Notes under the pieces: model-generated
What the model saw: the letters and a program-made list of their open reading frames with translations, nothing else
The model's database searches: none
What the model was told of the DNA's origin: nothing
Made by a program: the position numbers and the translations under genes
Source: a virus
Strand: one strand, 5' to 3'
DNA length: 25,402 nt
Virus genome (UHGV): UHGV-1747320
Part shown: one piece after another, positions 22,759 through 25,402 of the stretch
How positions within the stretch are numbered: the stretch's first letter is position 1
Layout: each line of letters opens with the position of its first letter

Positions 22759-23505
22759 ATGTCTAATACCCATGTAAAAAACATCAAACTTGGTGCCTGT
22801 AAGGTGTCGTTTGGTGGTGTGGATTTGGGTTACACCAAAGGTGGTGTTCAGGTTGAAGTAGCCACTGAAACGCAGAAAATCACCGTTGACCAGAGAGGTC
22901 AAACCGTAGTCTCAGAAGTAGTTATGGGGCGTAACATTACCATTACCGCACCTCTGGCCGAATCTGTGCTCCGAAACATGGTTGACCTGATGCCCGGTTC
23001 TACTCTGAGCGAAGATGACAACTCTGTCACGATCACATCTGCTCAGGGCGTAAACCTGATGGATGTAGCGAAGGAGCTGGTTCTGACTCCGCAGGACACA
23101 ACCGACTATGTGTTGACCATCCCGAAAGCGGCAACTGCGGGCAACTTCACTATGACCTACCAGTCTGATGATGTTCGTGTGTTCTCTGTTCAGTTCAGCG
23201 CATACCCGGATGATGAAGGCGTTTTGGGCAAAATGAGCGGTCCAAAACCGGTAAAAACTGTGTCGATCACACCGGAATCTCCAACCGTAAAAGCTGGAGA
23301 GACAGTGCAACTGACAGCAGAAATCACTCCAGCTGATGCCGCAGATAAAACCGGTGTTTGGGAATCCGAAGACCAGGAAAAGGCCACGGTAGATCAAACG
23401 GGTCTTGTGCGTGGTGTGGCGCAGGGTACTGCAAATATCTCCTTCACCAGCAATAGCGGTGCTAAGAAGGCAACTAAGTCAGTAACGATTAACTCCGCAG
23501 ATTAA
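22759..23505 (+). CDS. Major tail protein with C-terminal Ig-like (Big_2) domain (about 248 aa)
   Basis: AAGGAG RBS before ATG 22759; C-terminal 80 aa match the Big_2 pattern; strong terminator downstream; position before chaperone and tape measure genes. Confidence 0.8.
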   Translation: MSNTHVKNIKLGACKVSFGGVDLGYTKGGVQVEVATETQKITVDQRGQTVVSEVVMGRNITITAPLAESVLRNMVDLMPGSTLSEDDNSVTITSAQGVNLMDVAKELVLTPQDTTDYVLTIPKAATAGNFTMTYQSDDVRVFSVQFSAYPDDEGVLGKMSGPKPVKTVSITPESPTVKAGETVQLTAEITPADAADKTGVWESEDQEKATVDQTGLVRGVAQGTANISFTSNSGAKKATKSVTINSAD

Positions 23506-23519
23506 TCAGTAATTAAGCA

Positions 23520-23546
23520 GAGGCTCAGGATGAGCCTCTCTTTTAA
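23520..23546 (+). terminator. Rho-independent terminator (stem AGAGGCTC/GAGCCTCT, loop AGGAT, T-run)
   Basis: 8-bp inverted repeat 23520-23527/23533-23540 then CTTTT. Confidence 0.75.
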
Positions 23547-23560
23547 AAGGATTTTAACCA

Positions 23561-23878
23561 ATGACCAAATTACTCGATCTCGATTCCATTCTGCCTCCGA
23601 AGAAAAGCATCAAATTTGGCGGTCAGGAATATCCCATCGTTGAAATGACGGTAGGTCTGTTCGTTTCCATCAAACAGATGGAAGGCAAAGATCTCATGAA
23701 CATGTCTCCTGTTGAGCAAGTGACAGCTTATGCAGATCTGGTTCGTAAGGTTATCCCTTCAGTACCTGACGAAGTTCTTGAAAAACTGACTGTTCCGCAA
23801 CTCCAGCAGATCTTCACCTTCGCTATGGAAGTGATTGATGAAGAAAACGAAAAAGCGGCTGGCGAAGGGGCAAAGTAA
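23561..23878 (+). CDS. Tail assembly chaperone (gpG-like, 105 aa)
   Basis: Position between major tail and tape measure genes; acidic C-terminus; the -1 frame is open across its 3-prime end. Confidence 0.7.
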   Translation: MTKLLDLDSILPPKKSIKFGGQEYPIVEMTVGLFVSIKQMEGKDLMNMSPVEQVTAYADLVRKVIPSVPDEVLEKLTVPQLQQIFTFAMEVIDEENEKAAGEGAK

Positions 23879-24228
23879 TTTCCCGCGATGAATCCGGGAC
23901 AAGGACCGTTTCAATAGATCTCGGATTCTATTTCAGTCGTGTAGTTGCTCACTACGCTGTGTCGCCATTAGAGCTATTGAACATCCCTCTCACGATGTTC
24001 TGGATGCTCAGTCGCAATATAGACCGTCTGCGTGCGGAAGAGGATGTCCGCAACTTACAAGTCGCTCGTGCGTCCCAGGCGGATGGCGAGGCTGTGAAGG
24101 CGTTCATGGAGGGTTTGCAACTCAGGATTGGAAGACCAGTCGTAACAGATAAAGTCTACGATCCAAGCCAGGATAAGGCAGACCCTGACGCCAAAGAGCA
24201 ACTGATGCAAATATTTGGCAGAGGATGA
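23842..24228 (+). CDS. Probable -1 frameshift extension of the tail assembly chaperone (gpGT-like)
   Basis: The -1 frame relative to 23561..23878 is open from 23842 to 24228 with no ATG until far downstream; an A-run GAAAAAG (23849-23855) lies in the 34-nt overlap. Confidence 0.45.
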   Translation, partial: RKRKSGWRRGKVISRDESGTRTVSIDLGFYFSRVVAHYAVSPLELLNIPLTMFWMLSRNIDRLRAEEDVRNLQVARASQADGEAVKAFMEGLQLRIGRPVVTDKVYDPSQDKADPDAKEQLMQIFGRG

Positions 24229-24235
24229 CAAGGGA

Positions 24236-25402
24236 ATGTCACAAAACGTAGAGTTTATCCTGTCGCTGGAAGACAAACAGTTTACAGCGTCAATCGATCG
24301 TGCGGGGAAACTGCTTACTCGATTTGGTGAGCAGGTAACAAAGCCTGCTCAAAAAATCCAAACCTTTGAACGCTCTTTGGGTTCGGTCGCCCGTATCATT
24401 GGCGTTCTGGAAAGCAAGCTCGATTCTACGGCAGATAAACTACAGGATGTAGCTGCCGGTTTTGAGCTTGCTTCAGATGCTACGCGTAAAATGCGTGGTA
24501 ACATCACCAGCCTCAATTCTGGTCTTAAAGCCCTGATTGAGCGCGTCGATACGACAACTTCTTCAGTAGATAAACTCACCGCGTCATTACGTAAAGTGCA
24601 ATCAGAGCTAAATGATTTCTCTGATTGGGCGACCTATGCAAGCAAAAGCGCAAGCCGCTTTGGTACGGAGGTCAAAGAAGCCTCTGCGTCCGTGAGTGGC
24701 ATGAATACGCGCCTTAATACCACGACGAAGCGACTCAGTAATTGGGGTGTCACAACGACTCAGGCTGCCGAGGGACTGAAAAAGGTTCGTGAGCAGATGG
24801 ACGAAGTTATCGGGCGTCAGCAACTGATTAGCAAGCCGGTACGTGTTCGTACATCTGGAAGTGGTGATGGTGGTAGCGGTAGCAGGCAGCGTAGCGGCGC
24901 TTCTGGCCACAGCGGTAAAAATAACGAAGGAGGTATATTCTCTGGCCTTCGTGGCAACATTTTCCTGCTTGGCGAGATCGGAGATGCAGCCAGAACGGTT
25001 ACTGACATCATGTTTGGGTGGCAGAAGCCTATTGTTGAAGCTGCGGCCGAAATGGAACGTATGCGGGTGATGCTTCGAGGGTTGAATAAGGAGAAGTCCA
25101 ACCCTGGCCAGGCTGCCGCTGATGATATGAAGTACATCGTAGACATGGCTCAAAATGCGCCGTTCGCGATGCAGGCGTTAACAGACTCCTTCGTGAAGTT
25201 TCGTTCTGCTGGCTTAGATCCAACCGATGGTTCTCTGAAGGCGCTGGTGGACTCCGTTGCTCGTTTTGGTGGTGATAGTGAGCTGTTGAAACGTGCGGCT
25301 GTGGCCGTTCAGCAGATGTCCGGTAAGGGCGTTGTGTCAATGGAAGAGCTACGTCAGCAATTAGGTGAAGCCGTTCCTAACGCGATGCAGGCAATGGCAG
25401 AC
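24236..25402 (+). CDS. Tail tape measure protein, N-terminal part (3-prime truncated by the window end)
   Basis: Open frame from ATG 24236 to the last base of the window (389 codons, not in the track because it has no stop); Ala/Gln/Ser-rich helical sequence; position after the chaperone genes. Confidence 0.8.
   Translation, partial: MSQNVEFILSLEDKQFTASIDRAGKLLTRFGEQVTKPAQKIQTFERSLGSVARIIGVLESKLDSTADKLQDVAAGFELASDATRKMRGNITSLNSGLKALIERVDTTTSSVDKLTASLRKVQSELNDFSDWATYASKSASRFGTEVKEASASVSGMNTRLNTTTKRLSNWGVTTTQAAEGLKKVREQMDEVIGRQQLISKPVRVRTSGSGDGGSGSRQRSGASGHSGKNNEGGIFSGLRGNIFLLGEIGDAARTVTDIMFGWQKPIVEAAAEMERMRVMLRGLNKEKSNPGQAAADDMKYIVDMAQNAPFAMQALTDSFVKFRSAGLDPTDGSLKALVDSVARFGGDSELLKRAAVAVQQMSGKGVVSMEELRQQLGEAVPNAMQAMAD

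Follow-up and report, generated by a model that had tools for sequence, protein, structure and literature searches.

The gpG/gpGT system of phage lambda, a -1 frameshift reportedly described by Levin in 1993 and by Xu, Hendrix and Duda in 2004, is compared here with a pair of small open reading frames (ORFs), termed G and T, found in a 25,402-nucleotide stretch of viral DNA (UHGV virus genome UHGV-1747320; hereafter the window), which belongs to an SSU5-like phage-plasmid from Escherichia coli. As in lambda, a small ORF and an ORF in the -1 frame lie between the genes for the major tail protein and the tape measure protein, the second ORF has no separate start, the frame relation has been kept although sequence similarity is lost, and tRNA-Lys would shift on an AAG codon close to the 3' end of G. 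No sequence similarity of G or T to lambda G or T was detectable. Lambda uses the heptamer G_GGA_AAG, whereas in the window clade re-pairing is impossible for the P-site codon (GCA or GUA), and AAG is directly followed by a stop codon. The lambda frameshift has been reviewed (PMC5009743), and a slippery heptamer is typical of the gpG/gpGT family but not obligatory, since -2 and +1 cases are known.

Slippage by a single tRNA next to a stop codon is the 'shifty stop' process that Weiss reportedly described in 1987. One-tRNA P-site -1 slippage arises under slow A-site decoding and does not need a downstream structure (PMC6771820). The present locus resembles systems of the 'shifty stop' or 'hungry' type (prfB; dnaX and HIV, PMC6771820) in having its slip codon immediately 5' of a slow A-site codon, and in these systems no downstream structure is needed; here the adjacency to the stop is conserved. 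It differs from prfB, which shifts +1 and has a defined Shine-Dalgarno (SD) element at 3 nt, and from dnaX, where the one-tRNA route operates only on starvation (PMC6771820). Sites of the A_AAG or NNA_AAG type (G_CGA_AAG in IS1222, A_CGA_AAG in Bacillus subtilis cdd, and the tetramers of the IS3 family) are also similar, in that only tRNA-Lys re-pairs, from AAG to AAA, and there is no re-pairing on the 5' codon, whose last base is A; those sites need a pseudoknot at ~6 nt or an upstream SD, for which there is no clear equivalent here. Sites of the form NNA_AAG, which IS1222 uses and which are also present in cdd, are most efficient if the tRNA reading the 5' codon has a high wobble propensity (PMC5009743). 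Of the tetramers, A_AAG is the one most prone to shifting in E. coli, and it reaches ~5.6% with a strong pseudoknot (PMC4066793).

Comparison of related loci strongly supports the two ORFs as gpG and gpT analogues of an SSU5-like siphovirus phage-plasmid, and we place at roughly three in four the probability that a G-T fusion is made by a -1 slip on A_AAG at the G stop, the favoured timing being a slip in the P site while the ribosome is paused at the stop. Most ribosomes would translate G from 23561 to 23875 and terminate at UAA 23876-78. A minority would shift by -1 on the last sense codon, where tRNA-Lys would re-pair from AAG at 23873-75 to AAA at 23872-74; the next codon would be GUA at 23875-77, and -1-frame translation to 24225 would yield a fusion of 222 aa with the predicted junction ...AAGEGAK-VISRDESG.... 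The slip would probably occur while a lone tRNA-Lys occupies the P site and the slowly decoded stop occupies the A site. Product efficiency and function we infer: with lambda as a guide, the tape measure protein would be coated by G and by the G part of GT, and the T part would recruit the major tail protein.

The function thus proposed appears to be that of the known lambda G/GT device, and the slip site falls, as judged by its sequence, in the known A_AAG tetramer/hexamer class. The unusual feature of these junctions is the fixed adjacency of the putative slip site to the stop codon in a tail chaperone gene. Neither a stop-abutting A_AAG site nor such a site in a tail chaperone gene is described in PMC4066793 or PMC5009743, and no case was found in the literature searched in which a programmed -1 shift in a phage structural gene relies on a stop for its constitutive pause. 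The literature search also found no paper linking SSU5-like elements with frameshifting, and the paper on Escherichia phage Cyrano, a close relative of the window, mentions neither chaperone nor frameshift (PMC9928086).

Coding in the -1 frame downstream of G

The -1 frame is open from 23842 to 24225, amounting to 128 sense codons followed by a TGA at 24226-28, and it overlaps the end of G by 34 nt of sense codons, or 37 nt with the stop counted, in agreement with the first-pass annotation, which had been made from the letters of the window alone. An open run of this length exceeds chance (probability ~0.002, with stops at 3/64 codons). The first ATG, GTG or TTG in this frame is the GTG at 23959. 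As the same annotation had held, no plausible start with a ribosome-binding site comes before it, and the GTG itself lacks pairing to the anti-SD sequence; none was found at this codon or in the region of ATG 23995/24004 (0 to +0.9 kcal/mol). Database records start T either at GTG 23959 (Cyrano, PhiR41_1 and PGAP-type records) or at a later ATG, and the codons at these positions differ between references.

To compare the locus across relatives, 261 related loci were gathered from annotated phages, genomes, viral contigs and metagenomes, many of them duplicates. Analysis of 12 representatives over 23878-23958, the segment between the G stop and the annotated start of T, revealed variable sites at -1-frame codon positions 1, 2 and 3 in 16, 12 and 26 of 28 cases, respectively. 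Pairwise differences in this linker were distributed 454:267:861 by codon position, a pattern like that in the rest of T (2022:1328:3378). When differing codons were read in the T frame, 50% were synonymous and no stops appeared, while in the other two frames 11-12% were synonymous, with 13 and 7 stops. The -1-frame protein is conserved from the first codon after the G stop, as V-I/V/E-S/T-R-D/N-E-...-SIDxGFYFSRV..., and this holds down to 42-54% identity. By these substitution counts, the linker evolves as coding sequence in the -1 frame only, under purifying selection.

A start codon that could serve this segment is not conserved. The equivalent of GTG 23959 is GTA in the Klebsiella phage and TTG, GTC, GTT, ATT, GAA or CTT in other lineages, and the T frame contains no ATG, GTG or TTG from the G stop to SIDxGFYF in the window, SSU5, the Klebsiella phage, Photorhabdus, Morganella, Xenorhabdus or the related locus L103. 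Since the linker is selected as coding and has no conserved start, the T frame would be enterable in all lineages only from G. T is in the -1 frame relative to G in 39/39 distinct junctions of the SSU5 clade and in 11/11 distant relatives. The locus therefore has what characterises gpG/gpGT systems, namely an overlapping, shifted second ORF without an initiation signal, a conserved frame relation, and coding from the shift site onward. This comparative evidence strongly supports a -1 frameshift fusion of G with T, the gpG/gpGT-type event by which the first-pass annotation had proposed to join the chaperone to its extension.

Production of T without a frameshift, by initiation at GTG 23959 or ATG 23995 or by termination-reinitiation, for example at AUU 23878, is improbable. 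Every database record annotates T as a separate ORF, but the GTG is neither conserved nor preceded by an SD, and a start at 23959 or 23995 would lose the conserved SIDLGFYFSRVVAHY segment, which is under purifying selection. Reinitiation could draw on an SD-like AAGGGG (-7.1 kcal/mol) located 7 nt 5' of AUU 23878, a correct spacing; however, several lineages have GAA, GTA or GTT as their second T codon, and neither the AUU nor the SD-like element is conserved. Some relatives do carry candidate starts, with GTG or ATG a few codons before SIDxGF in L005, L008 and L011, and ATGA or GTGA overlapping the G stop in L255-L257, yet where L256 and L257 have M, the residue in L173, L260 and L255 is I, A or V. 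Independent initiation also fails to explain the heptamers and hairpins of the distant relatives and the invariant A before AAG.

A profile search of 1.8 billion representatives returned 359 T-family clusters at 50% identity, in which the starts chosen by gene callers are spread over many profile positions, as expected where no real start exists. None of the best 150 of the 359 clusters has the length expected of a natural in-frame G-T fusion. The longer proteins P0123, P0111 and P0169 were considered as natural fusions and rejected, since they look like frame-error or run-on artefacts. In these proteins and in P0086, a frame error of one base has fused T either with G or with the tape measure protein, by what looks like a homopolymer or assembly error; P0123 reads just as if a deletion had occurred in the A5 run, and such proteins could mislead searches for natural fusions.

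The SD of G pairs at -5.4 kcal/mol, compared with -5 to -8 kcal/mol for neighbouring real genes, and the protein matches phrog_893 (E=4.5e-49). An AlphaFold model of G (predicted local distance difference test, pLDDT, 72) was searched with Foldseek against the PDB, giving nothing below E=0.4, and against BFVD, where the top matches were enriched in annotated tail assembly chaperones (best E=2.8e-4, template modelling score 0.64). One member of the G family matches Phage_TAC_7 weakly (E=0.085). The predicted fold weakly supports homology of G to known tail assembly chaperones.

Table 1 Positions of features in the window, and shift-site heptamers in distant relatives.
Feature	Location	Strand	Remarks
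Major tail protein gene	22759..23505	+	C-terminal Big_2 Ig-like domain, Pfam E=9e-26; PHROG major-tail families; start as in the Cyrano annotation
G, tail assembly chaperone-like gene	23561..23878	+	ATG start, 105 codons, then TAA 23876-78
TGA in the -1 frame	23839..23841	+	upstream limit of the open -1 frame
GAAAAAG, A-run candidate	23849..23855	+	zero frame GAA AAA G; non-conserved
Proposed recoding signal GCA_AAG_UAA	23870..23878	+	slip tetramer A_AAG 23872-75; zero-frame stop 23876-78
T-like extension, -1 frame	23875..24228	+	117 codons and TGA; phrog_1131 E=4e-40
Linker, annotated intergenic	23878..23958	+	putative -1-frame coding; contains conserved SIDLGFYFSRVVAHY motif
Small hairpin UCCCG(23881-85)/CGGGA(23895-99)	23881..23899	+	-5.9 kcal/mol, 5 nt after AAG
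Stem-loop, 23890-99 paired with 23919-28	23890..23928	+	conserved; -12.6 kcal/mol, starts 14 nt after AAG
GTG, annotated T start	23959..23961	+	non-conserved, without SD (+0.9 kcal/mol)
Tape measure protein gene, start	24236..25402, exits window	+	Pfam TMP_3 E=3e-18; phrog_1292 E=4e-235
Heptamer G GGA AAG			Photobacterium ganghwense L022
Heptamer A AAA AAG			Oxalobacter metagenome-assembled genome L023
Heptamer A AAC CCT			L173, L256, L257, L260
Heptamer G GGA AAC			L174, L256, L259
Heptamer A AAA AAA			L258

The A_AAG tetramer and the stop codon of G

In the zero frame, G ends with GAT GAA GAA AAC GAA AAA GCG GCT GGC GAA GGG GCA AAG TAA. The sequence GYA AAG TAR was present in 246 fetched loci, which reduce to 39 distinct 95-nt junctions, all of the enterobacterial clade, and which take the forms GCA AAG TAA, GTA AAG TAA, GCA AAG TAG and GTA AAG TAG. 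TAA or TAG thus stands directly 3' of AAG in 39/39 distinct junctions, the arrangement of a 'shifty stop'. The codons just 5' of GYA AAG vary freely, with Gly encoded as GGC, GGT, GGG or GGA. Codon usage in the window gives GCA as 30% of Ala codons, GTA as 26% of Val codons and AAG as 39% of Lys codons. The third base of the overlapping -1-frame codon GTA, a synonymous site, is invariant, while 26 of 28 other third positions vary.

The position at which the -1 frame opens further confines the shift. In SSU5, L008, L011, L019, L020, L103 and many others, it opens just 10-13 nt before the end of the G stop, and a shift is therefore possible only on (GAR) GYA AAG, and in L011 only on GCA AAG. Among the available codons, cognate -1 re-pairing is possible only for AAG (to AAA), and the tetramer A_AAG stands in frame, allowing tRNA-Lys this cognate exchange. 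E. coli has a single tRNA-Lys, with the anticodon mnm5s2UUU, whose mnm5s2U34 pairs weakly with AAG. These data strongly support A_AAG at 23872-75, abutting the G stop, as the conserved slip site. The overlap in the window contains no X_XXY_YYZ heptamer, which the first-pass annotation had also observed.

That annotation had instead located the shift upstream, possibly as a P-site slip of tRNA-Lys on GAA_AAA_G at 23849-55. It had described the run and its reading frame correctly, but this is not the conserved slip site, and as the source of the fusion it is very unlikely. A shift here would give a ...NEK-SGWRRGKVISR fusion in the window and its closest relatives, whose -1 frame is open from 23842 onward, and A_AAA is a weakly shift-prone tetramer, although far weaker than A_AAG (PMC4066793). 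The run is absent from L005, L011, L017, L103 and others, which have GAA GCC GCC, GAA GCT GCA or CAA CAT instead. Moreover, SSU5 and most lineages have GGT in place of GGC (GGT GAA), a synonymous change that puts a -1-frame TGA downstream of the run, and a shift there would terminate at once. Because close E. coli variants carry either GGC or GGT, the open -1 path across the A-run is not under selection. A minor share of the fusion in the window itself may nevertheless come from the A-run.

The GGC/GGT polymorphism in G lies at 23861-23866 of the window, which reads GGC GAA. The GGT state cuts the G/T overlap from 37 to 13 nt by creating the -1-frame TGA, and both states are found among close E. 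coli and Salmonella elements.

Slippage of RNA polymerase, which would delete or insert an A in place of a ribosomal shift, is the least likely of the explanations considered. The A5 run at 23850-54 lies in the overlap, and the database protein P0123 reads as if one A were missing; however, A5 is shorter than the runs known for productive transcriptional slippage, and the conserved site has just three A's. The run is also not conserved and is followed by a -1-frame stop in most relatives, while P0123 comes from one metagenome contig, contains a second frame error and looks like an assembly artefact.

An SD-like GAAGGGG is present at 23864-23870 of the window, 2 nt 5' of the AAG slip codon, with -7.1 kcal/mol to the anti-SD. 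The arrangement resembles that of prfB (AGGGGG, 3 nt, CUU UGA). It occurs only in lineages with GAA GGG (the window, SSU5 and Klebsiella), the others having GAA GAA, GAC GAA or GAT GAG, and is probably incidental.

Downstream RNA and the wider G/T family

Folding of the region downstream of the slip site, where the first-pass annotation had suggested looking for a stimulatory structure, gave a divided result: a conserved stem was found 14 nt away and a weak hairpin 5 nt away, but the stability of the segment as a whole is like that of shuffled sequences. Only the inner CCG/CGG (3 bp) of the small hairpin is conserved, and it is mutually exclusive with the larger stem. The larger stem is the minimum-free-energy hairpin in most of 15 clade representatives (mean z -1.5), with 92.7% of cells paired compared with 87.0+-1.8 in shuffles. 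It contains one covarying pair, 23893:23925, present as UA/GC/AU, and both of its arms encode conserved residues. The RNAalifold consensus is weak (-2 kcal/mol), and an Rfam scan of 23500-24300 gave chance-level matches only. The pair counts would also allow an H-type pseudoknot (23881-85/23895-99 with 23890-94/23924-28), which is offered as speculation.

Readable DNA was available for 11 distant relatives, comprising L022 (Photobacterium ganghwense), L023 (an Oxalobacter metagenome-assembled genome) and the metagenome contigs L173, L174 and L255-L261. They resemble the SSU5 clade in having homologous G and T proteins, T in the -1 frame and the same gene order, and differ from it in mostly having a heptamer, often with a near hairpin, whereas the SSU5 clade has no heptamer and, compared with some of them, a longer linker. 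A canonical in-frame heptamer occurs in the overlap of 9 of the 11 (Table 1), and L255 and L261 have just a C_CCT tetramer. The AAG codons of the Photobacterium heptamer and of the window match each other in a codon-by-codon alignment (K|G-ITRNESG vs K|V-ISRDESG). In the nine heptamer lineages the zero-frame stop follows 1-8 codons past the heptamer, and in six of them (L173, L174, L256, L258, L259 and L260) a strong hairpin begins 3-9 nt after it (-18 to -32 kcal/mol, z -2.7 to -5.1). Several of these six hairpins have as their core the palindrome GAAGUCGAUCGACUUC, coding for K-S-I-D-F. Between the shift site and SIDxGF, the SSU5 clade has ~11 codons more than the relatives with a short linker (L173, L255-L257 and L260).

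Because the distant family members have a heptamer with a closely spaced hairpin, the form found in the SSU5 clade is read as derived: the family has what appears to be a classical frameshift cassette, of which this clade carries a derived version without the heptamer. The stem at 23890-23928 seems to be a relative, now displaced, of the stimulator found in the distant members. Throughout the family, the T-frame codons for I-D-F/L-G-F form the 3' arm of the hairpin.

A start/stop overlap, ATGA or GTGA, was observed at the G stop of L255 (996-1004), L256 and L257. It coexists in some distant relatives with a canonical heptamer, and sister lineages have I, A or V at the 'M' position. In the relatives with this overlap, T might be made by both frameshifting and translational coupling.

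The same fusion protein could also arise by a two-tRNA slip on the hexanucleotide GYA_AAG during translocation, with tRNA-Ala or tRNA-Val in the P site and tRNA-Lys in the A site, stimulated by RNA structure, and with the stop being incidental. In E. coli the tRNAs that read GCA and GUA carry cmo5U34, and 5' wobble favours NNA_AAG sites. The AAG of the Photobacterium G_GGA_AAG is at the homologous position, implying an A-site AAG there, and hexanucleotide sites of this kind are established in cdd (A_CGA_AAG) and IS1222 (G_CGA_AAG) (PMC5009743). Structure is also at hand, with the small hairpin starting 5 nt after AAG and the conserved stem, with its covarying pair, further downstream. However, the correctly spaced hairpin is weak, with 3 bp conserved, the conserved stem is 14-17 nt off, and tetramers without a strong stimulator are near background (PMC4066793). 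A two-tRNA slip also leaves unexplained the fixed stop in the 39 distinct junctions and the invariant third base of GTA. We regard it as a serious though less probable alternative, and consider a P-site slip at the stop, its timing being inferred, to be the likelier course at somewhat better than even odds. The P-site slip is favoured because the stop adjoins the slip codon in every non-canonical lineage and not in the heptamer lineages, and because the third base of the overlapping GTA never varies.

Several observations weigh against a stop-assisted slip on A_AAG, or against the identification of G and T on which it builds. In E. coli reporters, Z_ZZ.N tetramers including A_AAG average 0.15% without a stimulator, compared with a background of 0.11% (PMC4066793). 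No convincing stimulator stands at the usual 5-9 nt, the small hairpin being weak and the larger stem lying further off, at 14 nt (17 nt in one sub-lineage); nor does the sequence of 23876-23935 (z -0.5) or of 23840-23960 (z -0.2) fold more stably than shuffles. The upstream SD-like AAGGGG was considered as a general stimulator and rejected, as it is not conserved. Conservation of the stop position could merely reflect selection on the length of G, and the loci are phylogenetically related, so that their counts overstate independence. As to the proteins, Pfam and NCBIfam scans name no family for G or T, and the model of T is poor (pLDDT 64), with no informative fold and a single uncharacterised fragment found by BFVD search.

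Gene neighbourhood and implications

Identity over the 801 bases around G and T is 99% with Escherichia phages Cyrano and CMS-2020a, compared with 91% for Salmonella phage SSU5 and 87% for several Klebsiella phage-plasmids, and the same DNA is carried on plasmids by 232 of 5426 complete E. coli genomes. The Cyrano junction is identical to that of the window over the aligned 231 nt. Cyrano virions have a 259-nm tail (PMC9928086), and since a phage with the same junction makes tailed virions, the tail module works.

The genes are arranged in the order tail terminator, Ig-domain major tail protein, G, T and tape measure, which is shared by SSU5, Cyrano, the Klebsiella phage and more distant contigs; the tail terminator of the relatives is a Phage_tail_terminator_6 gene 5' of the major tail protein gene. 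Synteny is anchored upstream by the gene for the major tail protein and downstream by that for the tape measure protein, and between them lie two consecutive small ORFs, the position typical of gpG/gpGT systems.

G and T (SSU5_013/SSU5_014 in RefSeq NC_018843 and CYRAN_13/CYRAN_14 in Cyrano) are labelled 'hypothetical protein' in RefSeq SSU5, Cyrano, PhiR41_1, the Klebsiella phage and PGAP-annotated E. coli plasmids, and no database record examined for G/T annotates a frameshift. Their PHROG families, phrog_893 and phrog_1131, are both marked 'unknown function'.

A separate hairpin was observed at 23515-23546, after the stop of the major tail protein gene and before the start of G. It has a 9-bp GC-rich stem, AGAGGCUCA/UGAGCCUCU, with CUUUU directly 3' (-17.8 kcal/mol, z -2.9, no shuffle being as stable), and is overlooked by a simple terminator scan because it has only 4 T's. 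It looks like a leaky terminator or RNA-stabilising element, which would reduce the output of G, T and the tape measure protein compared with that of the tail tube protein. In addition, the SSU5-like contigs L012 (JAEWTL010000011.1) and L015 (DALYYK010000001.1), with T parts of 93% and 82% protein identity to that of the window, are placed in metagenome-assembled genomes labelled 'Bacillota bacterium' and 'Candidatus Fimivivens sp.', most likely through binning contamination by an enterobacterial phage-plasmid.

On the present evidence, G can be annotated anew as a tail assembly chaperone and T as the frameshift extension joined to it at 23875, and the labels of phrog_893 and phrog_1131 could be revised in the same way. 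The G/GT biology is itself expected and the surprise is moderate; the interest lies in a natural test of stop-assisted -1 frameshifting. The homologous genes form a natural series, in which G_GGA_AAG, A_AAA_AAG, A_AAC_CCU and G_GGA_AAC occur mostly with a strong hairpin, and one large clade has only A_AAG beside the stop. This series is a test bed for whether a stop codon can replace P-site re-pairing and a structured stimulator in -1 frameshifting, and for how gene finders and frameshift predictors that expect a heptamer perform on such sites. As a tentative proposal that we hold at less than even odds, the SSU5-like enterobacterial phage-plasmids may have replaced the heptamer and near hairpin with A_AAG and the gene's own stop as an obligatory pause, a programmed -1 'shifty stop'. 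If this is true, the G:GT ratio, and hence tail assembly, would depend on the efficiency of termination, through release factor activity and stop context, and not on RNA structure.

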